A stretch of DNA of 64,000 nt. Source: Cyclobacteriaceae bacterium. GTDB lineage: Bacteria; Bacteroidota; Bacteroidia; Cytophagales; Cyclobacteriaceae. Below are positions 5,264 through 52,061 of this stretch, one piece after another. The notes under the pieces were generated by a model. That model saw nothing but the letters and a program-made list of their open reading frames with translations. It was not told the origin of the DNA and ran no database searches. The stretch spans positions 3,816,268-3,880,267 of the forward strand of contig OZ271831.1 of the NCBI GenBank assembly GCA_965601455.1, written 5' to 3'. Positions within the stretch are counted from its first letter, which is position 1. Each line of letters starts with the position of its first letter. Made by a program: the position numbers and the translations under genes.

Positions 5264-5398
5264 AAGGGTCTTCATGATATTTGGCTAGCGGAAATCAAAC
5301 GTAAATCGGAAAGCCAATGAAATTAAGAAGAACAATAAATTGTTACTACCTGGAATGACTGTTATTAAGCATCAACGTCCAAGTAATATAAACTGAAC

Positions 5399-7550: not shown

Positions 7551-7877
7551 CTAATCGAGTTTTACCAAATGGGTCATCCTTATCAGGTGAAAAATGTGTG
7601 AAACAATAAGACAGCCTACGATAACAATGATTGATAGTGGACCAATCTTCGGGAGGTCTAATGAGTAACCAAAAATGGTAAACCCAATACCAAACCGGCT
7701 AATCAAATAAGCACCCACACCAAAAAAGGCAATTACTGAAAAGATTAGTAAGTTCAGCCTCAACTGAATCTGTTTGATCTGCTTTTTTCTAAGGCTTTCC
7801 ATCAGTTGATCCATGAAATCATCTGAGGTATTGACCAAACTCTCTTTGAGTAGCTCTTTTAGCTTGTCTTCATTCAT
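7551..7877 (-). CDS. Small membrane protein, putative anti-sigma partner of the upstream ECF sigma factor
   Basis: 108 aa with a soluble N-terminal helix and then 2-3 TM segments. Its start overlaps the sigma gene stop by 4 nt (ATGA). Confidence 0.45.
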   Translation of the reverse strand: MNEDKLKELLKESLVNTSDDFMDQLMESLRKKQIKQIQLRLNLLIFSVIAFFGVGAYLISRFGIGFTIFGYSLDLPKIGPLSIIVIVGCLIVSHIFHLIRMTHLVKLD

Positions 7878-14756: not shown

Positions 14757-15329
14757 ATGAACTATTCAAAAATCATCGCCTTAATCTTATTTATTTCGCT
14801 TCAGAATCAAGTGTCGGCACAAACTGCCACCATTGAATACAATCTCAATGGAAGGGATTTAAGTGAAACCTCGAATAACCCTTTTAAAAAATACATCGGA
14901 GAATGGACCTTGAAAAACGACGACTGGACGCAGGATTGGGGTTATGGTATCGATTCCATCAAAATTCCAGGGCATCACACCATCACTCAACAGCTCAATA
15001 CAGACAACAGCCTACTTTCCATCATCGACGGACCAGAACCCAATGGACATATTTTTTGGTCCTACAATCCAAATACAGGAGAAGTGTATCATTTATCCAG
15101 CTTCGGAACCATAAGAGCCGGAAATGGGCAGGGAACAGTCAACGGAAATGGAGATGTCCAACTGAAAATAAAATTTGAGGGAGAACCGGAGGATACCTAT
15201 CGAATCTACAATTACCGGTGGATCAATGAGGATGAATATCATATGAAGTCCGTGCAGTTTAGAGAAGATGATCAACCAACCGGACTTTTTTACGAGGGGA
15301 CGTTCGTACGAATCGGTTACAACGAATAG
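14757..15329 (+). CDS. Secreted hypothetical protein
   Basis: The internal ATG at 14757 gives the signal peptide MNYSKIIALILFISLQNQVSAQ. The track start at 14718 is a TTG. Confidence 0.4.
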   Translation: MNYSKIIALILFISLQNQVSAQTATIEYNLNGRDLSETSNNPFKKYIGEWTLKNDDWTQDWGYGIDSIKIPGHHTITQQLNTDNSLLSIIDGPEPNGHIFWSYNPNTGEVYHLSSFGTIRAGNGQGTVNGNGDVQLKIKFEGEPEDTYRIYNYRWINEDEYHMKSVQFREDDQPTGLFYEGTFVRIGYNE

Positions 15330-19376: not shown

Positions 19377-19485
19377 GATACAATTTTTTATAAGCAAATT
19401 GCAATGAACCCTTTTGACAGAATCGCTACTTTAATAAGCGCTGGGGTACTTCTAATGAACGCATGGTTCACTTTAAGGAAATACC

Positions 19486-20229
19486 TTAATGCAAACCCAG
19501 CTGGTCAAGACTCCGCATGAATTGCTCTTTCTTACGCTGTGAAATTCCCACTTCGGCCCCATCAGACATTAAAACCGACCCTCCATCAGATTTTAAAACC
19601 TGGTGAACATGAGTGAGGTTAATCATATGTGATTTATGAATACGAATGAATCCAAAAGGAGATAATAGATCTTCATAGTACCCCATGGTTTTTGAGATAA
19701 TAACTTTCTCCTTTTCGGTATAAAAGATCGTGTAGCTCTGATCCGACTCACAACGGATGATTTCATTGATCTTAAAAATGTAAATCTTGTCTTGCGTTTT
19801 GAGGATCAGCTGTTGATCCTGGTCTTCGGCTGCCAGGTTGGCTTTTAGTGTATCCACCGACACCCGATCATGTGATGAAAGTGTATTTTGTACCTTCTCA
19901 ATCGCCTCTTGTAGTGCACTAAACTTAATGGGCTTGAGTAGGTAATCCACGGCACTAAATTTGAAGGCATTCAAGGCGAATTCCTGGTGCGCAGTGACAA
20001 ATACAATTTTGAAAGAAATTTCATCGAAAAGGTCGAGGAGTTGAAAGGAATTTTGATGTCCAAGTTTGATATCCATCAGGACTAATTCCGGATGAGATTC
20101 CAAAATTGCATCATATGCTGTTTGAACATTCCCTGCCGACCCAACTACTTCTACCGGTAGCTCTTTCAGCATCTCAATCATTCCTGCCAGAACATTTCGC
20201 TCATCCTCAACTACAAATACCTTCATCAT
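19486..20229 (-). CDS. LytTR/AlgR family response regulator
   Basis: It has a receiver domain (VFVVEDE...LVLMDIKL) and a LytTR DNA-binding domain (FIRIHKSHMINLTHV). The ATG at 20229 overlaps the kinase stop (ATGA). Confidence 0.9.
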   Translation of the reverse strand: MMKVFVVEDERNVLAGMIEMLKELPVEVVGSAGNVQTAYDAILESHPELVLMDIKLGHQNSFQLLDLFDEISFKIVFVTAHQEFALNAFKFSAVDYLLKPIKFSALQEAIEKVQNTLSSHDRVSVDTLKANLAAEDQDQQLILKTQDKIYIFKINEIIRCESDQSYTIFYTEKEKVIISKTMGYYEDLLSPFGFIRIHKSHMINLTHVHQVLKSDGGSVLMSDGAEVGISQRKKEQFMRSLDQLGLH

Positions 20230-22142
20230 ACCCACGTAATTAAAGGTAGCTCAAGTGTAACAATTACACCGTCCCCGGTTTTACGGTTTTCTACTGAGAC
20301 ATCTCCTGTCTGTGATTTCCGCCTGAATAGTATGGCTAATCGTTCCTGCGTTATCCGAATGGCTTTTGATCCTTGCTTGTATTCAATTTCATCCTGCAAC
20401 CCTTGGCCGTCATCCATGATCTCGATGATCAGCCTGTTATGCTTATCAGAAAGTTGAACTTTGATGTTGCCCTCGTTTCTTCCCTTGAAACCGTGCTCGT
20501 ACGCATTTTCCACAAAGGGTTGTAGCAGCATAGGAGGAAACTTTACGTTTGATGCGTCTTCCAGTTGATTTTGAATAACGTGGCTGATGTCTGGATAACG
20601 CATTTGTTGCACTTGAAAATACTTTTGCAAGGTTTCCAGTTCTTTTTCCAGTGTAATCCACTCCTGCGACGAGTAATCCAACACATCACGGGTGAGATCA
20701 CTAAATAAGCTTAAATACTCTGCTGCCTGATATTTATCTCCCTGAAATATGAAACTATGTATAGATGACAAAGCATTGAAAAGAAAATGGGGATTCATCT
20801 GTGATCGGAGTAACTGCTGTTCGATCTCTAACCTCTGTTCCGCTAGCTTCAGATTCCTTGACCGGTAATAGACATAGCCGGCTGCACTTGCTGCTAAAAT
20901 CAAAATCAAAGCTGCTATCCAAAAAAGGTTTTGTCTTTCCAATTTCAGATTGTTGATGAGCTGTTCTTTTTCAAGGTTAGTAATCTGCTGTTCCTTTTTC
21001 TCGGCTTCGTATTTGGCTTTCATCTCTTCTATCGTACGCTGTCGACTTTCATTCATGATGCTATCCTCGAGCACCCGAAGCATTTTCAATGTCTCAATGG
21101 CCTCCTGATATTGGTTGTTGTTTTGTTGAACCTCCGCCAAAAGCTCCAGGTAGTAAAGCTGATCCTGTTTCAACCCATAACGTTGAGACATTTGCAGACC
21201 CTCAACCACGATTTCAATAACCCGCTTCGGCCTATCCAATTGCAGATAGCAAAGAGCCAAAAGATAGCGACCTCTTACCTCAATAGTAGTTTGTTGATTA
21301 GATGCAGCCAACTCCAGGCAAGTCTCCAAATTCATGATGGCATCCTGGTAACTATTCACATTATACTCCAGGCTTGCCAGGTTATAGAGAACAAATGGCA
21401 ATCGCCTGTTTTCTCCAGTTTCGTCAGCTATCTCCGCGGCTTCTACCAGTAACTTCCTTGCAGAATCAATCTGATCGAGGTCAAGAAAGCTGGCGGCTAG
21501 GTTGGATCGGTCCAGTATTCTCAGATCATGATTTTTCATCTGATCTGCTAGTACAACAAGATCTTTTTCAATACTCAATGCACTACTGAAATCTTCCAGG
21601 GACGAATAGAGATTTGCCAGGTTTTGTAAAGCTCGATGCTTTCTGACAACGTTCTGTAAGTGATCCGCCAACTCTACCAGTGGCAAGCTAAAATTCATTG
21701 CAGAATCGTACTGGTTGATCCTTCGGTATGATATGGCAATGTTATGAGAGATATCAAAAAGACTTAAGGAGTCGTCGAACCTCCGAAGCATAGTTTTACC
21801 AAGGTTAATGGCCTCCTGGTAACGACTGTTTTTTCTCAAGTAGGTAACCTGAAGCGAGTATATCCGCTGAATCCAAGGATCAGTTGGGGTGCTTACTAAA
21901 GAAGAAGCAAGAGAGTCGATTTTTCTAGAAGCATCCTCTGGTTCAAGTAGATTCCAAGATCTTCCGAGAAAGTATAGCCAACGTGCATCTTCTATGGGGT
22001 TTTGATTGAGAATGCGTTGAATTGATTGAAAATCATTCAGCTGATCGTAGTACTCCAGCGAATCAGCATGCTGACCCTTCCCCAACAAAGGAAACAGTAT
22101 ACCCAGAACGAGTAATAGTATACCTGATCTCTTCAATCGCAT
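20226..22142 (-). CDS. Sensor histidine kinase (LytS/YehU-type His_kinase) with an N-terminal TPR sensor region
   Basis: It has a signal peptide, several TPR-like repeats, one TM (FWIAALILILAASAAGYVYY), an NPHFLFNALSSI H-box and an HATPase_c domain (MDDGQG). Confidence 0.85.
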   Translation of the reverse strand: MRLKRSGILLLVLGILFPLLGKGQHADSLEYYDQLNDFQSIQRILNQNPIEDARWLYFLGRSWNLLEPEDASRKIDSLASSLVSTPTDPWIQRIYSLQVTYLRKNSRYQEAINLGKTMLRRFDDSLSLFDISHNIAISYRRINQYDSAMNFSLPLVELADHLQNVVRKHRALQNLANLYSSLEDFSSALSIEKDLVVLADQMKNHDLRILDRSNLAASFLDLDQIDSARKLLVEAAEIADETGENRRLPFVLYNLASLEYNVNSYQDAIMNLETCLELAASNQQTTIEVRGRYLLALCYLQLDRPKRVIEIVVEGLQMSQRYGLKQDQLYYLELLAEVQQNNNQYQEAIETLKMLRVLEDSIMNESRQRTIEEMKAKYEAEKKEQQITNLEKEQLINNLKLERQNLFWIAALILILAASAAGYVYYRSRNLKLAEQRLEIEQQLLRSQMNPHFLFNALSSIHSFIFQGDKYQAAEYLSLFSDLTRDVLDYSSQEWITLEKELETLQKYFQVQQMRYPDISHVIQNQLEDASNVKFPPMLLQPFVENAYEHGFKGRNEGNIKVQLSDKHNRLIIEIMDDGQGLQDEIEYKQGSKAIRITQERLAILFRRKSQTGDVSVENRKTGDGVIVTLELPLITWV

Positions 22143-38112: not shown

Positions 38113-38454
38113 TCAATTATTCTGTTTCCTGTTCCTCAGGTAGGATATATATCCATTCAAAGTTTTGAGTAAATCAATGTTAAGGCCTTTTAGTCTTTCA
38201 TAATTCTCCGTTGAAATCATATTTTCATCCAACGCACAAGTCAAATGGTCAAAAGTCTCTACCAGGCTACCCCTAGCTTGACGACAAAACTGAATATTCT
38301 CTTGATAATGATATCTGCCATGTCCCTCAGCGATGTTTGCCGACACTGACCTTGAGGATCTGAGTAATTGATCAGTCAACCTATATCTCTCTTCTTTTGG
38401 CAAACTCTTTACCAATACGAAATTTCGTTTCGATAGTCCCTGGATTTGACCCAT
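38113..38454 (-). CDS. Four-helix-bundle protein (23S rRNA intervening-sequence protein family)
   Basis: SVSANIAEGHGRYHYQENIQFCRQARGSLVETFDHL is the family signature. Confidence 0.8.
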   Translation of the reverse strand: MGQIQGLSKRNFVLVKSLPKEERYRLTDQLLRSSRSVSANIAEGHGRYHYQENIQFCRQARGSLVETFDHLTCALDENMISTENYERLKGLNIDLLKTLNGYISYLRNRKQNN

Positions 38455-39695: not shown

Positions 39696-40289
39696 ATGTT
39701 AAAACTTGCACTAATTATTTTAACCCTTGGCAACACACCTGCTAATGATGCAGAGGTAGCCAACTACAGCGTAAACGTTACTGAGAGCGCTATCGAATGG
39801 AAAGGTGAAACTGTAGCTAAGTTTCACACAGGAACTGTTGACCTCAAAGAAGGTAATCTGGAAATGATAGATGGTAAACTGACTGGCGGATCTTTTGAAG
39901 TATCTATGGCTTCAATCAACTGTACTGATCTTGAAGGCGAGTGGAAAGGAAAATTAGAAGGACACCTTAAATCAGACGACTTCTTTGGAGTAGAAACATA
40001 CCCAACTGCTACTTTCGTAATGACTGAAGCCAAGCAGTTAGACGGTGGTAACTACGAGGTCACCGGTGACTTCACCGTAAAAGGTAAAACAGAAGTTATT
40101 ACTTTCAACACTGAGGTTACAGAGGCTGATGGTAACATCACAGCAGTATCCGAATTCACTTTTGACAGAGCCAAATTTGATGTACGATACGGATCAGACA
40201 ACTTCTTCGATAACCTGGGAGACAAAGCGATTTACAACGACATTCCGTTGAAGATTACGCTGAAAGCTGCAAGAAGCAACGATATCTAA
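39696..40289 (+). CDS. YceI family periplasmic protein
   Basis: IEWKGETVAKFHTGTVDLKEG...GHLKSDDFFGVETYPTATF is the typical YceI lipid/polyisoprenoid-binding domain. Confidence 0.85.
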   Translation: MLKLALIILTLGNTPANDAEVANYSVNVTESAIEWKGETVAKFHTGTVDLKEGNLEMIDGKLTGGSFEVSMASINCTDLEGEWKGKLEGHLKSDDFFGVETYPTATFVMTEAKQLDGGNYEVTGDFTVKGKTEVITFNTEVTEADGNITAVSEFTFDRAKFDVRYGSDNFFDNLGDKAIYNDIPLKITLKAARSNDI

Positions 40290-40325
40290 GGAGTCTAAAC
40301 AGCTATAAGACAGACATAAAGTAAA

Positions 40326-40352
40326 AGCCGGAGCATAGCTCTGGCTTTTTTT
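40326..40352 (+). terminator. Rho-independent terminator after yceI-like gene
   Basis: agccggagc-ata-gctctggct followed by tttttt. Confidence 0.6.
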
Positions 40353-40923
40353 ATTTATTCTGTAGCCTTTCAACTGGTATAACAAGGTCTTGCTTTGGAA
40401 TGAACTCTGGTATTCCACCTGGAAATCTACAATACATAATGTATTCCTTTTTCAATCTACCATAGCCTTTTATGATGGTAGATTGTCTACTCTTTTCAAT
40501 CCCGGCGGCCAATCCACCAGTTAATAAGGTCGCTGCACTTATCACAAGAAACCCGGGTTCTCCATGCATCATAGCTCCCAATAATGAGGGTGTTAATGCA
40601 ACCATTGTGAAACCCATAGTTTTCCTTGCCCTATTCTGGACCGGATGAATCTCATAATTCTTGATCTTTCTTTGATTCACCGATTTTATTCCATTCAATT
40701 CCATAACGCAAACTGAATCAGAGTCGAAACTGATTAACTCCCCTTTCACGATTACGTCCCCTAATGCAATTTCTATCCATGACCCGAACGTACTGTTTTC
40801 TATATAGGTATCGGACCGGCTTGAATGAACCGGCACTACCATATTATAATATTTAGCCTCCGGAGAGCAGCTAGATAGAGTGATGTATAGAAGTAGGGAT
40901 AACCTATTTATCCAAGTAATCAT
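40351..40923 (-). CDS. Hypothetical lipoprotein with a glycine-zipper-like membrane segment
   Basis: The ATG at 40923 gives MITWINRLSLLLYITLSSC (lipobox). A later segment reads GFTMVALTPSLLGAMMHGEPGFLVISAATLLTGGLAAG. Confidence 0.4.
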   Translation of the reverse strand: MITWINRLSLLLYITLSSCSPEAKYYNMVVPVHSSRSDTYIENSTFGSWIEIALGDVIVKGELISFDSDSVCVMELNGIKSVNQRKIKNYEIHPVQNRARKTMGFTMVALTPSLLGAMMHGEPGFLVISAATLLTGGLAAGIEKSRQSTIIKGYGRLKKEYIMYCRFPGGIPEFIPKQDLVIPVERLQNK

Positions 40924-42496
40924 CACTATTGAATTTACTTTTCCAGAACAAAGAATCCATCTTATCCTCAACTTTTACATAATCAGGAGTCATCAGTTTT
41001 AACCACTTGTTCGGATTGAATATTAGTGTTCTCACCATATTCTGATCTTCGCATTTTAACCATTCACTTCGCATCCACTCCACGTAATAGCCTTCAGAAC
41101 GTATAAATGGTGTTACACCACTGGGTAATTCAAAAACCAGTAATTGTGAGTCTCCGGGTTGGTTAACCTTATACAAGTCGTTGGAAGTGTATAACCGCAA
41201 GTCTTTTTCACTTGCTTCATAGTTTACCAAAACCTCTTTAGGGTAAATAATGCTGAAATCAAGAGGTGATACTATGGATGCCACCTGAACAGCATCTATT
41301 CTCCACAAACCTTTGGTAAAGGTCAATCTCACTCTTGAGAAGCTTCCGTCTCGTTCCACAGGTAATAAATGACTTTCTGAAGCAATTGGACCTTGTTCGT
41401 TAATTATGCCAATGCTGACCCATTGATTATCCATCCAAACACTTACTTCGATTCCCCCTAAAATATCATAGATGGTCTTCTGTGCGGATCGAACCCTCGG
41501 ATCAGATCGTTCATATTTCGCAATCCATTCACCTATCCTTGAACCCATCTGCCCCATAGCCTCATAAAAGAGAAATGTAGTCATGAGAGATTGCCTTTTG
41601 GTGACTATTACGCTACCAACTTGCCCGTCTTGCTCAGGGAATTCCAAAACGATAGATTCTCTGGTAGCCAGATGTATAGAGTCACTTTTACTTAGATATT
41701 CGCGCTTGTCTATTTTTTGAAGATGAGATAATTCAACTATACTACCACCATCAATACCAATGGCCATTGATGGTTTATTGGTGCCAAGAAACTGGCTTTC
41801 ACCCCAGTATACGTTAAGTTTTTGTGGATTATGCACGCCGAGGATCTCCACCTTTTTGATGTAGTGTGTTTCCATGGCTTCGTTTTTTACTTTGAGTAAA
41901 AGCTCACTGCCACCATCGACATAATTTGGTAGAGGATCGATATCCTCCTCTTCTAAAGAACGCGAAATACTTGATGAGAAACCCTCAGCTTGCAGTATCT
42001 CTTCCCCGTCATTCATTAGATAGAAAGTAGGGCATGAACCAAAACATGACTTTGGATTCATGATGCAATAGATTGCTCCTATACCTGTGAAGGTGGTTAA
42101 GGTCATTAGCATAGGCGAAATCAGGTTCCAGCCTTTGGTCTCATTAACCTCAATCAGGACAATATCATCGAAGTTTAGTGTGATGTTTTCCAAAGACCAT
42201 TTAGTGCCTCCAATTCTTGATCGATTAATCCCGAATTCATAGCCCTTACATATTAATTCCTGATTTTCATGATCAACCACTATCACCTCAGCTACATACA
42301 AGTGTCCTTTTCTATCATGAATTTTAACTTTATCCGGTTTATTAAGAGTATAGCTTTCTTGCCCAATCAGGGATTCAATCTCTTCAACTTCTACCACCGA
42401 TCGATTAACCGCTATTTTGTAGGTACAGGAGTAAACACTCCATATAAAAAAGGCTAAAAAAAGGCCAAAAAGGGAATATTTTGACCAATTAGACAT
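40904..42496 (-). CDS. Hypothetical lipoprotein (530 aa)
   Basis: It has a signal/lipobox (FIWSVYSC) and no recognised domain. Confidence 0.45.
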   Translation of the reverse strand: MSNWSKYSLFGLFLAFFIWSVYSCTYKIAVNRSVVEVEEIESLIGQESYTLNKPDKVKIHDRKGHLYVAEVIVVDHENQELICKGYEFGINRSRIGGTKWSLENITLNFDDIVLIEVNETKGWNLISPMLMTLTTFTGIGAIYCIMNPKSCFGSCPTFYLMNDGEEILQAEGFSSSISRSLEEEDIDPLPNYVDGGSELLLKVKNEAMETHYIKKVEILGVHNPQKLNVYWGESQFLGTNKPSMAIGIDGGSIVELSHLQKIDKREYLSKSDSIHLATRESIVLEFPEQDGQVGSVIVTKRQSLMTTFLFYEAMGQMGSRIGEWIAKYERSDPRVRSAQKTIYDILGGIEVSVWMDNQWVSIGIINEQGPIASESHLLPVERDGSFSRVRLTFTKGLWRIDAVQVASIVSPLDFSIIYPKEVLVNYEASEKDLRLYTSNDLYKVNQPGDSQLLVFELPSGVTPFIRSEGYYVEWMRSEWLKCEDQNMVRTLIFNPNKWLKLMTPDYVKVEDKMDSLFWKSKFNSDDYLDK

Positions 42497-42542
42497 ACTT
42501 TAAAATACTAAATTCTGGCCAAAAAAGCAAGGCTTGGAGCCC

Positions 42543-42590
42543 CTAGGAATGCATCCAACCCTGTGCTTGGAGCTCCACTGTGTCCCTTAA
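42543..42590 (-). pseudogene. Displaced remnant of the thiL 3' end (last ~15 codons plus stop)
   Basis: The minus-strand translation is LRDTVELQAQGWMHS*, against the intact thiL C-terminus QNVVELQAQGWKHFE*. At the DNA level, 42548-42578 matches 51032-51062 at 28/31. Confidence 0.6.
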
Positions 42591-42621
42591 TCAACCCATA
42601 ATTTGGTGCAATCCCCGATTA

Positions 42622-42659
42622 CCTAAAGTATCTGCGACAAATCCTAAAGTCTGTGCGAC
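42622..42659 (+). promoter_or_regulatory. Tandem direct repeat, 17 bp - 4 bp - 17 bp (CCTAAAGTATCTGCGAC aaat CCTAAAGTCTGTGCGAC); candidate AraC-type activator site
   Basis: The two 17-mers are 15/17 identical with a 21-bp period. The element ends 75 nt upstream of the ATG at 42735 and about 32 nt upstream of a TAnnTTTG-like box (tattttta, 42691-42698). The same architecture occurs at 50667-50704. Confidence 0.5.
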
Positions 42660-42734
42660 GTAATTCTTAGCGTTCCGCACTACCCCCACGTATTTTTACT
42701 AAGAGTAATTCGATCACTATTTCAGACTAAGTAA

Positions 42735-44846
42735 ATGATCGAACAAAAAGGTTTTGTCTTGACACAAGAAAATAATTTGCGTAATTTCATTGGGACCAAC
42801 CGGCCTCAACCACCGATGAATCATCCGGAAAAATCCGATCCTGCCAAAGATCATGGAAGTAATGATCCCGTTTCCATGGATGAAGTTTTTCTTGAAAAGA
42901 TCAAAAAGGCTATTGACGAAAACCTTGAAACCAGGAATTTTGGGGTAGACGAACTTGGGAAGGAAATCGGTATGAGCCGTTCGCAGATTCATCGAAAAAT
43001 GCAGGCTCTGGGTGACATCTCACCTTCCAAGTACATCAGAACAAGAAAACTACAAAAAGCTAGAGAATACTTGCAAAAAAACGTAGGCAACGTATCCGAA
43101 ATATCGTTCCGTCTTGGATTTAGTAGCCCAGCCTACTTTACACAAGTATACACCGCTGAATTTGGTTATCCTCCTAGTGAAGAAGAACGAATAAGTCCTG
43201 CGGAAGCAGCAAAACTAATTCTATCGAAAGACGGTAAAGGTTCCACGCGAAAACTGGCCGCGATCATGTTTACGGATATCGTCGGATATACTACGTTGAT
43301 GGGCAAGAACGAACAAAAAGGCCTCGAGATACTTCGCCAGAGTCGTGAAATCCAAAAACCATTAGTAGAAGCGAATGGAGGAAAATGGCTAAAGGAAATG
43401 GGGGATGGTGTGCTCACACAGTTCGATAGCGCATATGATTGTGTACTCTGTGCTCTGCGAATTCAAAGAGCCGCGACCATGGGATTCGAGGCTAAAATTC
43501 GAATAGGTATTCACCTGGGAGACATTACTATCGAAGGCGATGATGTTTTTGGTGACGGAGTTAACATAGCCTCAAGATTGCAGGACATTGCCGATCCGGG
43601 AGGTATCTACATCTCAGAATCTATTCAAAAGGCATTACGGGGTCGATCGGAAATCCAATACCAACACCTAGGTGAGATCCAGCTCAAAAACGTCGATTAC
43701 CTGGTTAACACTTTTTGCCTGGTTGATGAAAGTCTACCCTCCCCTGCCGCATCCAGAATTCAAAAACTACGTGCCTCCAGCATTCGCGACACACATGCCC
43801 CACTATCCAATGTAAATGATGAACTTATCTTGGAAGTTTTTGACGAATTGACCCGGGCCAAACCTTCTGTTAAACGCTACCTCGAGATCCTCGAAGAGGA
43901 GGAGGAAGAACCAGATATTCGGGAGCTGGCGGATCTCATCATTAGAAACTATCCATGGATTATTGGTGTGGAACTCCGTAGGCTATTCTCAGGATCACTG
44001 CGGGCATTGGATAAGGACCGATTAGAACAAATACTCACTACCATCCACCGCTCCTTACAGTTCTTAGCCTATCTCTTAATCATTGAGCTCTACGAAAGAA
44101 TACTGGATGGCTCGATATCCGTCAACCCTGATTTTCAGACCAATTTCAAATCTCGATTCCTGGAACTTTCACATGACGACTATCTGTGGATTATCGCCGA
44201 GACAAACCAGGTAATGAAGGGAATTGACAGGTTCATTCCTGAGCTCTCGGAAAATATTGATGAACAGTTTATCCAAGGACTGGAATTGGAAATCCCAAAA
44301 CGGGACTATACCGGTGGGTTTAAGATAGAATTGAATGAAGAGGAACTGGCAAAAAAATGCTTCGAATACCAGGAAGTACTCACCTTCATTTTAAAACGAC
44401 TGGCTGTCCTTACTCCTTATAAGCTTGTCACTATCAAAGAGATTAAAGTATTAAAGACCCGAAGGGAAAAGGCCCTGTTTGAGCATTGGATGGATATTCT
44501 GAGCAACAACAATTCGGATTTCCGCTCCAAGGAAGAAACATTCGATTCATTCTCGGACAGCAATTCCGTTTTGCTCATGAAAAGTCTGAAACGACCAGAC
44601 CATTTCCTGAATTTATCGCCATTTATTATCGATACTCGGGGTGAATCAATGGATTCGCGGGAAAAGTTTGATCTTAAAAAAGACATATTCGTTTGTGAAG
44701 GACTGGCAAATAACAGCCTTAGATACGTAGGGACCGAAATAGCGGAAGAATGTGATCTTGGAAGCCTAAGCAACTATCAAAAACTGGTAGAGGAATTTCG
44801 GGACATCACGAACCTTGATGGAAGCGCGAAAGGAGGTGAATCATGA
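42735..44846 (+). CDS. AraC-type HTH + class III adenylate/guanylate cyclase domain + C-terminal alpha-helical domain of unknown function
   Basis: The HTH spans about aa 48-147 (GMSRSQIHRKMQALGDISPSKYIRTRKLQKAREYL...ISFRLGFSSPAYFTQVYTAEFGYPPSE). The cyclase spans about aa 173-330 (AAIMFTDIVGYTTLMG, WLKEMGDGVL, IRIGIHLGDI, DDVFGDGVNIASRL). The remaining ~340 aa are helical with no recognised family. Confidence 0.85.
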   Translation: MIEQKGFVLTQENNLRNFIGTNRPQPPMNHPEKSDPAKDHGSNDPVSMDEVFLEKIKKAIDENLETRNFGVDELGKEIGMSRSQIHRKMQALGDISPSKYIRTRKLQKAREYLQKNVGNVSEISFRLGFSSPAYFTQVYTAEFGYPPSEEERISPAEAAKLILSKDGKGSTRKLAAIMFTDIVGYTTLMGKNEQKGLEILRQSREIQKPLVEANGGKWLKEMGDGVLTQFDSAYDCVLCALRIQRAATMGFEAKIRIGIHLGDITIEGDDVFGDGVNIASRLQDIADPGGIYISESIQKALRGRSEIQYQHLGEIQLKNVDYLVNTFCLVDESLPSPAASRIQKLRASSIRDTHAPLSNVNDELILEVFDELTRAKPSVKRYLEILEEEEEEPDIRELADLIIRNYPWIIGVELRRLFSGSLRALDKDRLEQILTTIHRSLQFLAYLLIIELYERILDGSISVNPDFQTNFKSRFLELSHDDYLWIIAETNQVMKGIDRFIPELSENIDEQFIQGLELEIPKRDYTGGFKIELNEEELAKKCFEYQEVLTFILKRLAVLTPYKLVTIKEIKVLKTRREKALFEHWMDILSNNNSDFRSKEETFDSFSDSNSVLLMKSLKRPDHFLNLSPFIIDTRGESMDSREKFDLKKDIFVCEGLANNSLRYVGTEIAEECDLGSLSNYQKLVEEFRDITNLDGSAKGGES

Positions 44847-47737
44847 CTGCTCAGTCTCCATTCAAATTTCTTGATAGTTATACCGAACAGGATCGTGAGA
44901 TATTTTTTGGAAGAGACCAGGAAATTGAGGAAGTCTACAAGAAAGTGTTCCAGGGTCAGACCCTTTTCATCTACGGCGAATCCGGGACCGGCAAATCAAG
45001 TTTGATCAGTTGTGGGCTGGCTAATCGATTCAAGAAATCCGATTGGTTACCCGTTCATGTCCGTCGTGGGGAAAATATCAATGAATCTCTAACACGTGAA
45101 ATAAAGAAAACCGGTTTGACAGACATAAGCCTCAATGGAGACTCAAGGAATAACCTGTTCAAACTTACAAGATCCCTCTATCTGGATTTCTTCAAACCCA
45201 TCTATTTCATTTTTGATCAATTTGAGGAATTATATCTGCTGGGAGATAAAGAGGAATGGGAAGAATTCGTGGGTGGCATTAAAGCACTTTCCGAAAAGGA
45301 ATTGAATGTTCATTTCATCTTTATCATCCGCTCAGAATACCTGCATTTTCTATCCGAATTCGAATACGAGTTACCGGAAATCTTTAACAATAAGATTCGC
45401 GTGGAGAAAATCACTCGAACAAAAGCCAGGGAGTGCATTGAAGGACCGTGCAATGTATTTGACATAGAACTTGAAAAGGACTTCACGGATCAACTTTTTG
45501 ATAAGCTAAGCCCTGACAGCATAGAAGTAGAGCTTACCTATTTGCAGGTTTACCTGGATCGCGTGTATAAGCTTGCAAGTTCTAAAGCCGAGGACGATAA
45601 GGTGGTTTTCTCCAATTCTCTACTGGAGGATATTGGACTCGTGAGTGACGTACTATCTGATTTTCTGGATGAGCAAATTGAGGAAATGCCCAATCAGGAA
45701 TCTGCTCTAAACACACTAAAGGCATTTGTTACGGTTGATGGTACCAAGAAACAGGTGAACACTGAGGAGGTTGTCAGCTTTGCCCAGTCCATAGGGAAGA
45801 GTTTAAATGAGGTACAAGCACAGCAGGTAATCAATGAGTTGCTTGAGAGAAGAATTCTTAAGGAGATTCCGGACCTCAAAAAATTTGAACTTCGGCACGA
45901 TGCGCTTGCCCTGAAGATATATGAGAAGATCACTATTCGTGAACGTGAACTGATCGAGGTTAAGCAATTCCTGGAATATGGACTGGCAGAGTATCAAAAA
46001 CGGAAATTCCTACTTAACGATAAAGACCTGGCATACATCGAACCTCATTTGCCTCAACTCAACCTGAGAGGGGAAATAAAGGAGTTTGTGGACGAAAGCA
46101 TGGATCAGGCCGGCAGAAAGCGAAGAATTCGAAAGCGTGTTATAGCGATTGTTGCCATTATAATTATCCTCCTGATCACCTCTGTAATCGGATTTATACT
46201 TGCCCAACAGCAACGTGAGCAAGCGTTACTCCAAAAAGAAATCGCTGAAGAAAATGCGTATGAGGCAGAAGAGCAGAAAAAGCTCGCAGAAATCAATGCC
46301 TCTTTGGCTGTAGAAGCCCAGGATGAGGCCGAAAAAAATGCCGAAGAAGCTTCCAGGCAGGCATTCATAGCCCAGGAAAATGAACAACTCGCAAAGGAAC
46401 AGGCATCAATCGCAGAACAACAAAGGAGTCTGGCTCAAGAGCAACGAGTAGAAGCAGAATCACAAAGAGAACAGGCTATTGAGCAACGACAAATAGCCGA
46501 AAATCAGCGCCGAAGAGCGGAAGAACAAACAGTAATTGCCCAGGAAGCCCTGCAACAAATAGAGAAATTAAGGATTCTATCAAATGCTGTAAGCCTGGCT
46601 AATAAGTCTATTGCTTTACGACAGGAACCTTTGAAAAGTCAACTGGCCCTTCAAGCCTATTCATTTTACTCTTCTCAGCCTGTCGAGGGCAGAAACTCTT
46701 CAATACTAAATGCCCTGCACTTCGCCATGAAAAGTCAATTTGGGCCCGAGTACAACGTACTTCAGGGACATACGGGTAGAATCAATCAGATTCACTTATC
46801 GAATAATGACTTTTTCTCCCTGGAAGATGCGGGCAAACTACTTCAGTGGACGATGGCTGACGGGAAATTTGAGAGCCACGAGTTCATGAAAATTGAGGAG
46901 ACTTCCGGGATCAGCCGTAGGGTAAACGCATTATCCGAAAATAACGAGGGTCACTTTCTGGTCAGTACAGGATCTAATCTCTTTTGGTACATTCGAGAGG
47001 AGGTATTAACTCCCATCGAACTCAAGCAATTTAAGGGAACAGTTATCAAAATTCTTCCGGGCGATTCGATATGGACCATTTTATCCAGTGATCAGATCGT
47101 CACCCTATCCATTAATGACGACAATTCTTTAAACACCAGGTACCGACAGTTCGAAACTCAAATTGTAGATGCAGCTCGATTCAATGATGAATACTTGCTT
47201 CTTAGCCAGGAAGGGGTAAGTATTTACGACCGAACAAGGGACTCAGTTCGCAATACCAACTATACTCTGGAACCATTTCCAACCAAGATCGCATACTCAG
47301 CTAAAAGAAATGAAGTGGCTATTGGGAACGGCGAAGGACAGGTAATCCTATACAATCCGGATGACCAACAAATCATTGAACGGTTTCCCGGACATACATC
47401 CATCATTTCTGTACTGCAATTCTCAGACACTGACAACAAGCTCATATCAGCGGGATTTGATCGAGTAGTCAATATCTGGGACCTGGAAGACTTTGGCCAG
47501 GAACCGCTTCAATTCGCGGATCATGATCAGTTTGTCACTGCCGTTGGATACAGTTTGGTCAATCAGTTAATCGTGGTTGGTGAAATAGACGGAACCTTAA
47601 ACTACTATAACCTGGACTCCGATGTGTCCTACAAGCGTTTATGCCAATCGGTTGACGAAGCGATGAATGCTGCAACCTGGGAAAGGTATGTCGGAAATGA
47701 ATTTGAATATAACCCCTATAAATGCGAAGAAAAATGA
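44843..47737 (+). CDS. STAND-class P-loop NTPase (nSTAND1-like) - single TM - long coiled coil - WD40 beta-propeller
   Basis: The N-terminus is SPFKFLDSYTEQDREIFFGRDQEIEEV, with Walker A GESGTGKSS and Walker B IYFIFDQFEEL. A winged-helix-like FELRHDALALKIY follows. A basic cluster RKRRIRKR precedes the TM helix VIAIVAIIIILLITSVIGFILA (aa 433-454). An ~125-aa Q/E/A-rich coiled coil comes next. WD40 blades include GHTGRINQIH...LLQW and GHTSIISVLQFSDTDNKLISAGFDRVVNIWDL. The start overlaps the upstream stop (ATGA). Confidence 0.8.
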   Translation: MTAQSPFKFLDSYTEQDREIFFGRDQEIEEVYKKVFQGQTLFIYGESGTGKSSLISCGLANRFKKSDWLPVHVRRGENINESLTREIKKTGLTDISLNGDSRNNLFKLTRSLYLDFFKPIYFIFDQFEELYLLGDKEEWEEFVGGIKALSEKELNVHFIFIIRSEYLHFLSEFEYELPEIFNNKIRVEKITRTKARECIEGPCNVFDIELEKDFTDQLFDKLSPDSIEVELTYLQVYLDRVYKLASSKAEDDKVVFSNSLLEDIGLVSDVLSDFLDEQIEEMPNQESALNTLKAFVTVDGTKKQVNTEEVVSFAQSIGKSLNEVQAQQVINELLERRILKEIPDLKKFELRHDALALKIYEKITIRERELIEVKQFLEYGLAEYQKRKFLLNDKDLAYIEPHLPQLNLRGEIKEFVDESMDQAGRKRRIRKRVIAIVAIIIILLITSVIGFILAQQQREQALLQKEIAEENAYEAEEQKKLAEINASLAVEAQDEAEKNAEEASRQAFIAQENEQLAKEQASIAEQQRSLAQEQRVEAESQREQAIEQRQIAENQRRRAEEQTVIAQEALQQIEKLRILSNAVSLANKSIALRQEPLKSQLALQAYSFYSSQPVEGRNSSILNALHFAMKSQFGPEYNVLQGHTGRINQIHLSNNDFFSLEDAGKLLQWTMADGKFESHEFMKIEETSGISRRVNALSENNEGHFLVSTGSNLFWYIREEVLTPIELKQFKGTVIKILPGDSIWTILSSDQIVTLSINDDNSLNTRYRQFETQIVDAARFNDEYLLLSQEGVSIYDRTRDSVRNTNYTLEPFPTKIAYSAKRNEVAIGNGEGQVILYNPDDQQIIERFPGHTSIISVLQFSDTDNKLISAGFDRVVNIWDLEDFGQEPLQFADHDQFVTAVGYSLVNQLIVVGEIDGTLNYYNLDSDVSYKRLCQSVDEAMNAATWERYVGNEFEYNPYKCEEK

Positions 47738-48768
47738 GAAAATCATCTATCGTTCCCATTTTAATCATCTTACTGGTTCTGGTAGCTAATCCAGCAAAGT
47801 CCCAATGCGGAAAAAACCTGGAGGACGCTAGACGAGCGTATTACAATGGAGATTTCAGATCAGTGGAATCTTTGCTTGAAGACTGCTTGGAAACATTCTC
47901 GGACGAAGAGAAAATCGAAGCATACAAGCTTTTAACCAACATGTATCTCCTTTGGAATAACCAGGAAAAAGCTGATCAATCAATGTTCAGGTTTTTGGAA
48001 TTGAATCCATACTATACCTTGAGGGAGAGCGACCTGGTAGAATTCCAGGAACTGCATAAGGAGTACAAGGTAAAGACCCGGTTCACATACGGATTCAGTG
48101 TTGGATACCTGCATTCGGATTACATCATCATGCAACATCAGAGCCTGGCAGGAACCACTGAGGAGCCAGCGGATTACAAGGAATTTCCGGGGATTATCGT
48201 AGGAGTCACCGGTGATTATCGCTTGTATAAAGATTTCTATGCAAATGTCGGCCTCTTGTATTCACGAAGGAGCATGAGGCAGCAGGAAGAGATTCTCGAA
48301 TACCAAAAGGTAGCCAGCTTCGAGAAAGACCATTTCCTAAACATCCCCCTCCAAATTCGATACATCGCAGATTTTCGTACCATAAAGCCTTTTTTGGGAG
48401 GGGGTTATGGTGCACACATTCTGTTGCAATCCCAGGGAGATATTGATCGGATTCCACTAGAACCCGATTTTCCTAGTATTGTAGGAATAGCCGAGCAGAC
48501 CACTGACTATAACCTCACCAAACAAAGGCGAAAGTTGACGCATAATTGGAATGCCAGTACAGGTGTAATTATCGACTTCAATCAGTTTCTGGTAGAATTA
48601 AAAGCTACCTATCAATTGGGCATTAACAATGAAATCAACAGGAATTACTGGCTGAAGAATACGGAATTAACCGAAGTCTATGCCTTCGTCTCTGATGACT
48701 ATCGGATTGATAGTTACCTGTTTACGATCTCCCTATTAAGAAATATTTCTAACCCCATAAAGAATTGA
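47722..48768 (+). CDS. Secreted TPR-like N-domain + outer-membrane beta-barrel (PorT/OMP_b-brl-like) protein
   Basis: It has a signal peptide (IVPILIILLVLVANPAKSQ). A TPR-like segment follows (ARRAYYNGDFRSVESLLEDCLE...AYKLLTNMYLLWNNQEKADQSMFRFLELNPYY). The rest shows amphipathic beta-strands (FTYGFSVGY, IIVGVTGDYRL, ANVGLLYSR, LNIPLQIRYIA, PFLGGGYGAHILL, FLVELKATYQLGI). An alternative ATG at 47734 gives an ATGA overlap with the upstream stop. Confidence 0.55.
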   Translation: MRRKMRKSSIVPILIILLVLVANPAKSQCGKNLEDARRAYYNGDFRSVESLLEDCLETFSDEEKIEAYKLLTNMYLLWNNQEKADQSMFRFLELNPYYTLRESDLVEFQELHKEYKVKTRFTYGFSVGYLHSDYIIMQHQSLAGTTEEPADYKEFPGIIVGVTGDYRLYKDFYANVGLLYSRRSMRQQEEILEYQKVASFEKDHFLNIPLQIRYIADFRTIKPFLGGGYGAHILLQSQGDIDRIPLEPDFPSIVGIAEQTTDYNLTKQRRKLTHNWNASTGVIIDFNQFLVELKATYQLGINNEINRNYWLKNTELTEVYAFVSDDYRIDSYLFTISLLRNISNPIKN

Positions 48769-48770
48769 TC

Positions 48771-50090
48771 ATGAAAAAGTACATGTACCTATTCTTACTG
48801 ATTTTACTAGTTTCCTGTATTGAAGAATTAGATCCGGTAAATACTAGTTTTGAAAAATTCTACGGATATAACCTTTCATCAGATGACAGTGGATTACTGA
48901 AGCTGGAAAATGGAAACCTTCTGGTTTACGGATCTGCCATACGAACTTCCATGTCAACGTCAGTAACTGACGAAACATTTGCCAGATTATCTACTCTCGC
49001 TCAGGATGCGGAAATGCCATTCTTTATAGAAGTAGATGAAAATGGCAATGAAATCAGGAAAGCCATGTTCCCATTGGGGAATTTCGACTATTCACATAAC
49101 TTCTATGAATTATTTGGGGTTGAAAGTTTAAATACCGAACTGGCTTGGTTTAAGAAAGTAATCCAACTCAATGATGGTTCATTGATGGCGATCACGTCGG
49201 TAGTAACAAACAATTTTTTTTGGGTAGAGGATATAGTACTGATCATTTCTCCAGAGGATTTTCAGGTGAAGGAGCTTTACCTTATGCATAACTCTGAGAC
49301 TGAATTTGTTGAAACTGAATTTGTCCATCGCGGGATTGAAAAATGTCTCAAAAAAGATGATGGCTCAGTACTGTGCTTAACCGATAGTGAATACTATCCT
49401 CCTTACGAGGGAGGATATCGAAAATTCTATTCAATTATTGAATTTGCAGAAGACGGACAAATTAATCGAATATTCGATTTCGACAATGATCTCTCTGGTG
49501 CTTTCTTCATGGACTTCGTTATTGAAAATGAAGGAAATATTACATTGATTCATGGAAATTTCACCAATCCGAACCTCACTTTTGTCAAGGAAATTAACAT
49601 AAATACAGGGAATATACTCAGTGAAAATTCCGTTGAAATCCCTGCCAATTACGATTTCATCCTTAGAGCAAATCACCTCCTCTTACGAACAGAAAATGGG
49701 TATGCAATTCATGCACAAGATCGTGATACGTTTTCTCCGTTATACCTCTTCGACAATTCCTTTACATTATTGGATTCAACCAACTACATAAATAAGCAGG
49801 GAGTTGATGATGTGTGTTACATAAATGGGTTTATCCCTCTCAAGGACGGTGGATTTTGTAGTCTAGGCTACCCTTGCGAAGGGAACTCCGTTATCACAAA
49901 GTTGGACCAAGAAGGAAAAATTTTATGGGAGTTCTATGAAGCTCATAATAACCTGGATGGAAATCTAACCGGGCATTTGATGGAAACTGAAGACGGAGGA
50001 ATACTTCATTTATCCACAAAAAATTTCAACAATTCCGGCGCAAAACTGAGACTTCTTAAATTGGATAGGAATGGAAAAATTAGCAATTAA
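48771..50090 (+). CDS. Hypothetical lipoprotein, possibly beta-propeller-like
   Basis: The ATG at 48771 gives MKKYMYLFLLILLVSC (lipobox). DG-hydrophobic strand motifs recur (NDGSLMAITS, DDGSVLCLTDS, KDGGFCSLGY, EDGGILHLST). Confidence 0.45.
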   Translation: MKKYMYLFLLILLVSCIEELDPVNTSFEKFYGYNLSSDDSGLLKLENGNLLVYGSAIRTSMSTSVTDETFARLSTLAQDAEMPFFIEVDENGNEIRKAMFPLGNFDYSHNFYELFGVESLNTELAWFKKVIQLNDGSLMAITSVVTNNFFWVEDIVLIISPEDFQVKELYLMHNSETEFVETEFVHRGIEKCLKKDDGSVLCLTDSEYYPPYEGGYRKFYSIIEFAEDGQINRIFDFDNDLSGAFFMDFVIENEGNITLIHGNFTNPNLTFVKEININTGNILSENSVEIPANYDFILRANHLLLRTENGYAIHAQDRDTFSPLYLFDNSFTLLDSTNYINKQGVDDVCYINGFIPLKDGGFCSLGYPCEGNSVITKLDQEGKILWEFYEAHNNLDGNLTGHLMETEDGGILHLSTKNFNNSGAKLRLLKLDRNGKISN

Positions 50091-50595
50091 ACTAGTACTC
50101 GTGACTTCTCTTGTATTGAGTTTTGGATGTGACACAAAACTGGATTTAGAAAGAGAACCACTGAACCCATTGCATAATAATTGGCAATTCAATTTCATTC
50201 GAATTGATGATGAATGGCATAGTTTCGTAAATGAAGATTTTGAACCACCCCTATTCGATGAATTGTGGATTGGATGGTATTGGGTTGAATACAATGAAGA
50301 TAACTTTTACGACTTTAGAACAGATCTTTTACCAACTGAATATGGTACCAATGAAAACTATCAACCTGGATACGGGACTTATCAATATTTTCCGGAGGAA
50401 ATGCTATTAATCCATAATCCAGGAATGCCGTATGAAGTTTCCTACAATATCATTGAACTGAGTGATACAATGTTTATCAGGGAATATGAACGAATTATTC
50501 AGGTGGAAAACTTTGATAGTATTCCCATTGGGACTTCCGTTACTTATAGGGAGGTTTTGATTCCAAGAGAAATATACTATTCCGAAGAAGAGTGA
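50071..50595 (+). CDS. Hypothetical small lipoprotein
   Basis: MEKLAIKLVLVTSLVLSFGC (lipobox). It overlaps the upstream gene by 20 nt and is rich in aromatic and acidic residues. Confidence 0.45.
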   Translation: MEKLAIKLVLVTSLVLSFGCDTKLDLEREPLNPLHNNWQFNFIRIDDEWHSFVNEDFEPPLFDELWIGWYWVEYNEDNFYDFRTDLLPTEYGTNENYQPGYGTYQYFPEEMLLIHNPGMPYEVSYNIIELSDTMFIREYERIIQVENFDSIPIGTSVTYREVLIPREIYYSEEE

Positions 50596-50666
50596 ACGTT
50601 TAAAATCCTCTCCGTTTGAGAAGTTTTATTGCAGGTCCAAAAACAGCGTCGCATCCTACTCATATT

Positions 50667-50704
50667 CCTAAAACACATGCGACAAATCCTTAAATCCATG
50701 CGAC
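50667..50704 (+). promoter_or_regulatory. Second copy of the 17-4-17 direct-repeat motif (CCTAAAACACATGCGAC aaat CCTTAAATCCATGCGAC)
   Basis: It matches 42622-42659 at 30/38, with an identical aaat spacer and a similar 3' flank (GTGATTTT vs GTAATTCT). It lies 42-57 nt upstream of the small lipoprotein gene's candidate start codons. Confidence 0.5.
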
Positions 50705-50746
50705 GTGATTTTCGGTTTTCATCTGACATTCATCGTTCAATTAACC

Positions 50747-50968
50747 ATGAACCAAACAAAAATGAAAACGATGAAAACTTATTCAATTCTACTAACGGCG
50801 ATTCTTACTCTTGGACTTTTTTCTTGTGAACTGGATGATGCTGATATTCAGCGTGAAGATCCTACGGACAACCTTTCTTTCAATGCCTCAGACCGCGTAA
50901 GTGACCAGGACGATTCAGATGACATAAAAGCTAACAGCGGTGGTCATGTCGAAGGGAACTACAAGTGA
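50747..50968 (+). CDS. Small acidic lipoprotein (about 68-73 aa)
   Basis: MNQTKMKTMKTYSILLTAILTLGLFSC (lipobox) is followed by a D/E/S-rich tail. The start could also be the ATG at 50762. The track's GTG at 50705 lies inside the repeat motif. Confidence 0.4.
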   Translation: MNQTKMKTMKTYSILLTAILTLGLFSCELDDADIQREDPTDNLSFNASDRVSDQDDSDDIKANSGGHVEGNYK

Positions 50969-50988
50969 AAACGAGGGTCTCAACCGGC

Positions 50989-51026
50989 AAAAGCTCGAAT
51001 TTCTTAAGAAATTCGAGCTTTTTTTA
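50989..51026. terminator. Bidirectional terminator: 17-bp perfect palindrome abutting the thiL stop
   Basis: aaaagctcgaatttctt|aagaaattcgagctttt, with a T7 run on the plus strand and T4 on the minus strand. Confidence 0.7.
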
Positions 51027-52061
51027 TTCAAAATGTTTCCAACCCTGCGCTTGGAGCTCCACCACATTCTGACTGCGAGTAACCATCACTTTCCCCTTTT
51101 CTTTCGGGTGCATGTAGCCTATGGTATGAATATCCGGATGATTCTTAAGCTTCTCAAAGTCATCCTGATGAATAGTGAATAGCAACTCGTAATCCTCTCC
51201 CCCATTCAACGCAGCAGCATTGGGATCGATCTGGAACTCTGCTGCAGTCTCAAAAGCCTGCTTGTCGATAGGTAGCTTATCTTCATAGATACTCACTCCA
51301 AGATCAGAGTTCTTACAAATATGGAAGACATCGGATACTAATCCGTCGGATACATCAATCATTGAAGTCGGTTTTACACCTAAATCCTTTAACTCATGAA
51401 TGATATCCATACGTGCATTCGGACGAAGTTGTCTGCCCACTATGTAATTATACTCCTCAAGCTTTGGTTGCATTTCGGGATTGGCCAGGAACTCTTGCTT
51501 TTCTCTCTCAAGTACTTGCAAACCCATATATGCAGCACCTAAATCGCCAGTTACGCATAATATATCTCCATCCTTTGCCCCATTTCTATAAACAATGTCT
51601 TTTTCCACCGCGTAGCCAATGATCGATATGGAAATGACCAAACCAGCTGCAGAAGCGGTAGTGTCCCCCCCGACGATATCAAGATTATAGTTTTTTGCTG
51701 CAGCTTGAATACCTTCATATAGCAACTCCACAGCCTCAACGCTAAAGCGGTTGGATAAACCCAGGTTCACTGTGACCTGATGCGGAATTCCATTCATGGC
51801 TGCTATATCAGATACATTCACCGCTATGGATTTGTATCCGAGGTGTTGCAGTGGCATATACGATAAATCAAAATGTATGCCTTCTAATAACATATCAGAG
51901 CTAATCAGCATCAGCTGACCTTCTTGTCCGCCCAATACCGCCGCATCATCTCCGACACCTTTTATAGTATTGGGTGACTTCGTGGTTATCCCTTTGGAAA
52001 GTCTTTCAATCAATCCAAATTCACCCAAATCGGAGATTTCCGTTCGTTTTTCTTCGCTCAT
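51024..52061 (-). CDS. thiL: Thiamine-monophosphate kinase
   Basis: It has AIR-synthase-related fold motifs (GEFGLIERL, GVGDDAAVL, LISSDMLLEGIHF, GGDTT). Confidence 0.9.
   Translation of the reverse strand: MSEEKRTEISDLGEFGLIERLSKGITTKSPNTIKGVGDDAAVLGGQEGQLMLISSDMLLEGIHFDLSYMPLQHLGYKSIAVNVSDIAAMNGIPHQVTVNLGLSNRFSVEAVELLYEGIQAAAKNYNLDIVGGDTTASAAGLVISISIIGYAVEKDIVYRNGAKDGDILCVTGDLGAAYMGLQVLEREKQEFLANPEMQPKLEEYNYIVGRQLRPNARMDIIHELKDLGVKPTSMIDVSDGLVSDVFHICKNSDLGVSIYEDKLPIDKQAFETAAEFQIDPNAAALNGGEDYELLFTIHQDDFEKLKNHPDIHTIGYMHPKEKGKVMVTRSQNVVELQAQGWKHFE

Follow-up and report, generated by a model that had tools for sequence, protein, structure and literature searches.

Islands flanked by repeats that resemble attachment (att) sites are usually read as integrase footprints, and several described systems place such repeats at the 3′ ends of genes. 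In the cis-mobilisable elements (CIMEs) that Streptococcus thermophilus and Streptococcus salivarius carry at the fda 3′ end, attL/attR-type direct repeats lie at the end of a housekeeping gene, genes for integration and transfer are lacking, and the att site is common to the integrative and conjugative element (ICE) family that mobilises them. Phage 21 and e14, in icd of Escherichia coli, carry a homeologous gene 3′ end; the gene is kept intact and an orphan 3′ fragment lies at the far junction, the differences are mostly synonymous, and the element's own integrase lies beside the att site. Tycheposons and other cargo islands sit at tRNA or gene 3′ ends between partial att repeats, with shared hot spots and tyrosine recombinases nearby, and some of them have no recombinase. 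The locus described here lies in a 64,000-nt stretch of a Cyclobacteriaceae genome (GCA_965601455.1, contig OZ271831.1), hereafter the window. An 8.45-kb segment at 42579–51031, consisting of a compact plus-strand operon and a small lipoprotein gene (together, the cassette), lies between two copies of the last codons of thiL and encodes no recombinase; the same operon recurs at unrelated loci, and is twice bracketed by gene tails.

The locus shares with CIMEs both the direct repeats at a housekeeping gene end and the lack of integration and transfer genes, and by analogy a CIME-like status is possible; it differs in having no known cognate ICE or integrase, in repeats that are not alike between copies and in unconserved ends. 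The pattern of phage 21 and e14 is matched in miniature in the window, and more fully at a second locus, L091, described below, although no integrase accompanies it here. As in tycheposons, cargo lies at a conserved 3′ end between partial repeats, but no second thiL tail was found in 27 relatives (at up to 9 mismatches in 36 nt), and the ten neighbours scanned immediately downstream of the relatives' thiL are ordinary genes with no recombinase by Pfam. Related integrative elements share att core, arms and target gene, whereas the cassette is found on eight further contigs at different loci, one of them with an unrelated repeat; DDE transposons have inverted termini and duplications of fixed length, and neither is seen here (duplications of 31 and 45 nt). 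Homology-facilitated illegitimate recombination (HFIR) integrates foreign DNA via a homologous anchor on one side (PMC3240628), and transformation can create duplications through alternative pairing (PMC3784515). Insertion-duplication and HFIR resemble this locus in having no element-encoded recombinase, and repeats of 31, 45 and 654 nt with unconserved ends fit both, but HFIR as described usually deletes recipient DNA and needs anchors much longer than 31 nt, while the window shows a duplication.

The duplicated thiL tail

An earlier note, made from the letters of the window alone, had matched the 31-mers at 42548–42578 and 51032–51062 at 28 of 31 positions and had read them as the footprint of integration into the thiL 3′ end. 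The match itself holds at the same coordinates: the 25-nt core occurs exactly twice in the window at ≤3 mismatches and not once in 100 dinucleotide shuffles, and local alignment of flank against flank scores 47, compared with a highest shuffle score of 26. Nor is the repeat a dispersed one, being the conserved tail of thiL in two window copies; among 92 fetched loci one further exact match turned up, in Ekhidna sp. To15, where it is again the end of thiL. The longest perfect run shared by the two copies is 14 nt.

The thiL-proximal copy (51032–51062, minus strand) comprises the last codons (..VELQAQGWKH-, then F-E-stop) of an intact thiL at 51024–52061 on the minus strand, encoding a 345-aa AIRS/AIRS_C protein, and is the genuine 3′ end that the earlier note took it for. 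The orphan copy (42548–42578, minus strand) reads, together with 42543–42547, VELQAQGWMHS-stop (minus-strand translation ..LRDTVELQAQGWMHS, also written ..TVELQAQGWMHS, each followed by the stop), and its stop falls where thiL ends (..AQGW[K/R/T]HF-stop) in 27/27 family-level relatives. It also retains an intrinsic terminator (42521–42568, minus strand), of which the orphan coding tail forms the 5′ arm, with TAG in the loop and a T tract after the 3′ arm; orphan tail and downstream sequence fold into a stem of ~15 bp at −11.4 kcal/mol, equalled by 7/200 shuffles. A coding tail with hairpin and T tract marks the left copy as an orphaned thiL end with its terminator, as had been proposed, although the hairpin that the note placed at about 42520–42540, while real along with its T-run, is part of a larger stem at 42525–42568. 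Folding of the repeats gave no significant secondary structure besides this terminator.

The two tails overlap over 33 nt with 5 mismatches, four of which fall within the last 8 nt, and beyond the overlap they diverge into different stops and different terminators, the repeat itself stopping 5–8 nt short of the two stop codons. The intact gene ends in HFE-stop, one residue more than the HF-stop of 27/27 relatives, an ending accounted for by a single T deletion with respect to the relative at locus L023. The proximal tail, including 13 nt beyond the stop, matches L023 at 28/29 positions, a weak likeness, being the top result among 27 comparisons and lying in A-rich sequence. The repeat is too short for dN/dS, and what bears on a possible homeology of its copies is the differing stops and terminators and the L023-like proximal flank. 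With these differences the tails resemble two forms of the thiL terminus more than host DNA newly duplicated, which argues against a transposase-type target duplication; they would be better explained by a homeologous thiL tail carried in with the insert than by a simple duplication of the target site.

Profile searches of the open reading frames lettered E to L (40351–50968) against Pfam, NCBIfam, PHROGs and PADLOC gave no integrase, transposase, excisionase, relaxase or phage gene, in agreement with the absence of a recombinase remarked on before. A fold search for a hidden recombinase domain in the predicted structure of G, the first gene of the cassette, returned only cyclases from the PDB. 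Non-coding gaps within the bracket measure 156, 152 and 63 nt (<400 nt in total), and since spare sequence is limited to 43 nt on the left, between orphan repeat and operator, and 63 nt on the right, between the stop of gene L and the repeat, loss of a recombinase gene without trace is impossible. An element-encoded integrase is excluded. Within the window there is no recombinase or transposase for ~12 kb on either side, the sole tRNA lies 16 kb off, and a test for an integron showed neither intI nor an array.

These results bear on the suggestion, made in the earlier note, of a 'decayed and fixed' element: an integrase-borne genomic island at the thiL 3′ end, whose integrase and excisionase were later deleted. 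Such an island would account for an att-like direct repeat over a conserved gene 3′ end with the end regenerated, the 14-nt perfect run could be its core, and the insert is absent from relatives. Against this stand the empty profile searches and the little non-coding sequence in the bracket. The second tightly bracketed copy, in an independent genome (L083, below), would demand that an integrase had been cleanly deleted twice, and none of the eight other contigs with the cassette has an integrase within reach. The composition of the insert is native-like, its tetranucleotide distance ranking 13/80 windows and its GC content being 0.414 against a typical 0.40–0.43, and the comparison of k-mer usage that had been suggested gives no sign of foreign DNA. 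IMG/VR searches with the cassette protein H, a G profile, thiL and a 24-mer of the thiL tail were all empty, and a G ortholog is absent from the PLSDB plasmids, the matches there being partial cyclase or helix-turn-helix (HTH) matches (≤41% of G) and nearly all in unrelated genera. A decayed island is on this evidence unlikely.

The thiL locus in relatives and the cassette elsewhere

The nearest thiL relatives, sampled at one genome per species, are 74–76% identical and belong to Ekhidna, Marinoscillum and metagenome-assembled genomes of Cyclobacteriaceae/Roseivirgaceae, with no congeneric genome among them; a metagenome scan for thiL yielded none closer. Insert and orphan tail are absent from 27/27 family-level relatives, which supports an insertion at the thiL 3′ end specific to this lineage, and a homolog of any gene from E to L lies within 10 kb of thiL at 0/49 genome loci (31 metagenome thiL loci fell outside this screen). 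Synteny on the 5′ side of thiL (a glyoxalase gene, then O and P) is kept. On the 3′ side, thiL directly adjoins, in eight genomes, a convergent YceI gene and then a DUF3109 gene. The empty site had been predicted to be thiL followed by a homolog of 40904–42496, and this was wrong, as relatives show thiL next to the counterpart of window gene D (YceI-like, 39696–40289, plus strand), though given the evolutionary distance of these relatives a thiL–F–E intermediate may have existed. D is probably the ancestral convergent neighbour of thiL and marks the far edge of a variable block which, because genes E and F are window-specific as well, extends over ~10.7 kb (40290–51023) and comprises an F–E module, the orphan tail and the cassette. 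In other relatives the gap between thiL and YceI holds unrelated ordinary genes, indicating that this convergent spacer is generally permissive.

F (40904–42496, minus strand) encodes a 530-aa lipoprotein or membrane protein from a widespread family of lipoproteins without known function, and is the next gene after the orphan tail; its partner E (40351–40971, minus strand) encodes a small membrane lipoprotein. The pair (module span 40351–42496) is also kept at loci L091 and L092. In L091 (GCA_024644235.1) an F–E-like pair and one further gene are flanked on one side by a complete DHDPS gene and on the other by an orphan copy of the final 654 nt of the gene (copies at 4945–5598 and 8894–9546), the duplication ends at the stop codon, and no integrase or recombinase is present inside the bracket. 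The copies share 87% nucleotide identity, with dS 0.48 and dN/dS 0.12, and by these values the orphan is no decaying duplicate but the homeologous end of a gene, kept under purifying selection as it diverged, presumably within a different genome.

The orphan tail could also have arrived with F–E as the end of a donor's thiL, the cassette being inserted separately between thiL and that block. Orphan, terminator and F are contiguous, with 27 nt from the T-run to the start of F; the proximal tail and the terminator between D and E resemble the native terminator between thiL and YceI in L023; and the F–E module of L091 likewise travels with a gene-tail duplication. However, thiL–F–E synteny was absent from the 49 genome loci, a single spot would have had to receive two independent insertions, and L083 provides a case in which the cassette is itself the bracketed unit. 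A separate arrival of the orphan with F–E appears quite improbable.

Some details of the edges of the block may be noted here. The stretch past the thiL stop (51015–51045) and the D/E terminator (40322–40357) both resemble the single terminator between thiL and YceI in L023 (11015–11080), the motif common to all three being GAATAAA..AAAAAGC(C). The likeness, again of A-rich sequence and the best of 27 comparisons, hints weakly that the whole 10.7-kb block may sit inside one ancestral bidirectional terminator. The 27-nt gap between the orphan T-run and the start codon of F (window 42497–42528) leaves F–E almost without room for a promoter of its own; transcription from thiL may formerly have run on into the module, which may now depend on the divergent promoter region of G.

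Beyond the window the cassette was recovered at ten loci (L081–L090) that represent eight distinct contigs, three of the loci sharing one identical G. The unit G–H–I–(J,K) is conserved across them, with identity to the window proteins of 53–64% for G, 46–50% for H, 23–42% for I, 22–30% for J and 28–37% for K (full-length G orthologs, 53–65%). The neighbourhood of the cassette differs in each of the eight contigs, and neither thiL nor an integrase is found in any. One of these copies is also bracketed: in L083 (from contig Ga0247387_10011424 of JGI sample 3300022562) the cassette lies between perfect 45-nt direct repeats (3432–3476 and 11951–11995), spaced 8519 nt apart, compared with 8484 nt in the window. 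The left repeat takes in the final 11 nt of a methyltransferase gene together with 34 nt downstream, and its sequence is unrelated to the thiL repeat. A GTTRRRY-like heptamer (GTTGGRT) present in both the window and the L083 repeats has the opposite orientation relative to the cassette and was treated as chance. Two further candidates for a bracket were rejected, the first being flanking repeats in L081 that belong to a dispersed REP-like family of at least three copies (hairpin core GGTGCTCYGCRCC, at 7803–7848, 9481–9570 and 21526–21612), and the second a weak 23-nt match in L089 that lies within the shuffle range and has the wrong topology. In L082 (9234–9707 and 12070–14951) the cassette adjoins a 5′-truncated FtsX permease fragment, and both the H gene and the upstream ACR_tran genes are in pieces, through either pseudogenisation or a frameshift-rich long-read assembly.

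Two bracketed copies at different loci, with unrelated, target-derived repeats of 31 and 45 nt, might also reflect a non-autonomous element that was moved by a transposase in trans, with a long duplication of the target site as the result. Long, variable target duplications are produced by IS1634/IS1549-type elements, and a literature search on long target duplications gave no specific result. The ends of the cassette do not support a transposon: the left end against the reverse complement of the right scores 18–19, within the shuffle range, revealing no terminal inverted repeats, and no termini are conserved beyond the operator (see below), the window and L083 ends being otherwise unrelated. 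Furthermore, the sequence past the proximal repeat resembles native thiL flank rather than the end of an element, and no transposase was met in the ~12 kb on either side in the window. Transposition in trans is regarded as very improbable.

A possible route of insertion

The order of intact gene, insert and orphan 3′ fragment is seen in the window, with the repeat ending at the stop codon in L091 and 34 nt past it in L083. This topology arises from a site-specific integrase and from homologous recombination alike. The reading as a classic footprint of site-specific integration in the earlier note is not borne out, given unrelated sites, no conserved ends, no common att site, no nearby integrase and a different, 45-nt repeat in L083. 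Repeats of 31, 45 and 654 nt, together with unrelated targets and unconserved ends, point instead to enzymes that act in trans or to a process anchored by homology, and for the footprint an integrase is no better an explanation than homology-anchored insertion independent of a recombinase.

The account we prefer, with slightly better than even confidence, is that the element was inserted at the thiL tail in Campbell fashion and that the enzyme responsible is not one of its own products. The segment at 42579–51031 would be a horizontally acquired, self-contained operon cassette with operators and a terminator of its own, carried on circular or circularised DNA beside a homeologous thiL tail. 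A single crossover with the resident thiL at its last ~31 nt would then have yielded an intact thiL, the cassette, and an orphan tail still joined to the old terminator and to the old downstream genes F–E. The crossover could have been the work of the host's homologous or short-homology recombination, or of a tyrosine integrase provided in trans in the manner of CIMEs, and we divide our confidence roughly evenly between the two. What the sequences show is the insertion, the duplicated tail, the lack of a recombinase, the cassette at other sites and a second bracketed copy; the circular intermediate, the direction of events and the enzyme are inferred. With a perfect run of only 14 nt and no recombinase, the insert would by now be effectively fixed.

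Several points weigh against this account. Neither a circular form, nor a donor with the cassette beside thiL (49 genome loci), nor a conspecific empty site was found, and the closest thiL is only 74–76% identical. A 31-nt homology at 90% identity is a poor substrate for RecA. Either of the tails could be the host-derived one and the other the imported one, and the suggested order of the F–E and cassette insertions is taken only from the position of the orphan. Among flanks that could be examined, a bracket was seen only in the window and in L083, and none in L081, L082, L085, L086, L089 or L090, several of these contigs being truncated. Finally, L091 concerns a different module and a different genome.

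The junctions themselves were considered in the light of replicative or break-repair insertion, in which microhomology-mediated template switching, or capture by end-joining, took place at a break in the thiL terminator hairpin and re-priming upstream of that break duplicated the target. The junction in the window falls within the loop of the orphan terminator hairpin, the duplications are of variable length and the element ends unconserved, and the abutment of the L082 cassette against a 5′-truncated FtsX fragment is a sign of illegitimate joining. On the other hand, no clear junction microhomology could be seen by eye in the window or in L083, and template switching leaves unexplained why the proximal tail has its own thiL-type stop and flank. 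Insertion by template switching seems about as improbable as the arrival of the orphan with F–E discussed above.

A broader proposition goes beyond Campbell-type insertion at thiL. G–H–I–J–K could stand for a whole class of mobile operons, found in Cytophagia-type Bacteroidota and lacking a recombinase, that insert at stop-codon or terminator regions of unrelated genes with long, variable tail duplications (31, 45, up to hundreds of nt), either by an unrecognised dedicated pathway (host-encoded, or carried out by one of the cassette's proteins, for instance G, which binds DNA) or by a systematic short-homology Campbell pathway. We regard this as unlikely. Should the pattern hold generally, these Bacteroidota would owe part of their flexible genome to homology-anchored, recombinase-independent capture at gene ends, and att-like repeats alone would over-call integrative elements. 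The locus is of interest because the same cargo recurs with different gene-tail duplications, and for its uncharacterised cassette with an operator of its own.

Genes and operators of the cassette

Everything between the two thiL tails is encoded on the plus strand and the flanks on the minus strand, as had been described from the sequence, and the layout of open reading frames agrees. Neighbouring genes of the operon overlap at start and stop codons. G (42735–44846, plus strand; 703 aa) combines an AraC-type HTH, a class III nucleotide cyclase and a conserved C-terminal domain of ~380 aa, whose confidently modelled core is helical in the predicted structure and has no fold match. In 17 orthologs no variation is seen in the cyclase motifs F-x-D, K-x-x-G-D-G, R-x-G-x-H-x-G and G-x-x-V-N-x-A-x-R, which suggest, in the light of what is generally known of class III cyclases, an active enzyme, probably an adenylyl cyclase. 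H (44843–47737, plus strand; 964 aa), the start of which overlaps the stop of G, consists of an nSTAND1 NTPase (PF20703), a low-complexity linker and a WD40 beta-propeller.

The remaining genes encode envelope proteins. I (47722–48768, plus strand; 348 aa) is secreted, with a signal peptide, a short helical N-domain that gives weak Csm6-6H and TssQ matches, and a PorT-like outer-membrane beta-barrel. J (48765–50090, plus strand; 441 aa) is a lipoprotein with repeated 'DG(S/G)-hydrophobic' strands, from which a propeller-like fold is predicted; it diverges fast, with one distant homolog only among 5.8 billion proteins. K (50071–50595, plus strand; 174 aa) is a small lipoprotein. A further small lipoprotein, L, lies at 50747–50968 on the plus strand (probable ATG at 50747, within a listed open reading frame at 50705–50968); it is present only in the window's cassette and has a promoter separate from that of the G–K operon. 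A bidirectional terminator with a perfect 15-bp stem (50989–51022) serves L on its T7 side and thiL on its T4 side, and marks the end of the cassette unit.

From the identities given above, G–H–I–J–K is a conserved, uncharacterised module of which the cytoplasmic parts appear well kept and the envelope parts fast-evolving. The module resembles nSTAND signalling or conflict operons in that H, an nSTAND1 NTPase–WD40 fusion, is operonic with a cyclase and fast-evolving surface proteins, but PADLOC recorded no defence-system match for the cassette apart from a weak PycC-type cyclase match. A literature search on nSTAND1–cyclase operons gave no specific result, and no described system combining an AraC-HTH cyclase, an outer-membrane barrel, lipoproteins and a tandem operator was located in the literature.

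A second repeat, which had gone unmentioned in the earlier note, underlies the putative operators (42622–42665 and 50667–50710). Each operator consists of two 17-nt half-sites (CCTAAAGTnnnTGCGAC) on the plus strand at 21-nt spacing, the first pair (42622–42659) ~75 nt upstream of G and the second (50667–50704) upstream of L. The half-site pattern CCTWAAnnnnnTGCGAC has only four matches in the window, forming these two pairs, where 0.39 would be expected. A tandem pair is found upstream of each G ortholog examined, for example at 9787–9824 in L081, 9862–9899 in L082 and 3736–3773 in L083, and the half-site takes two forms across loci, CCTAAAGTnnnTGCGAC and CCTATAATCnTTGCAAC. With a geometry as in AraC-type operators, the pair is probably the operator of the HTH of G, and we infer that G may regulate both itself and L. 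The tandem operator thereby offers a directly testable regulatory hypothesis for a module of cyclase, STAND–WD40 protein, barrel and lipoproteins.

Elsewhere in the window, a gene at 38113–38454 (minus strand), between the DUF3109 gene and a sigma-70/transglutaminase block, encodes a 113-aa '23S rRNA-intervening sequence protein' (PF05635), and has no counterpart at the thiL loci of relatives. In L081 the envelope triad I, J, K occurs twice in tandem behind a single G–H pair (genes 17834–20791), the duplicated I genes sharing a 300-nt stretch of 80% identity (14993–15292 and 17884–18183), and duplication thus appears to enlarge that part of the cassette which encodes surface proteins. A tandem array with a period of 61 nt (20922–21287) lies just downstream of the same cassette.

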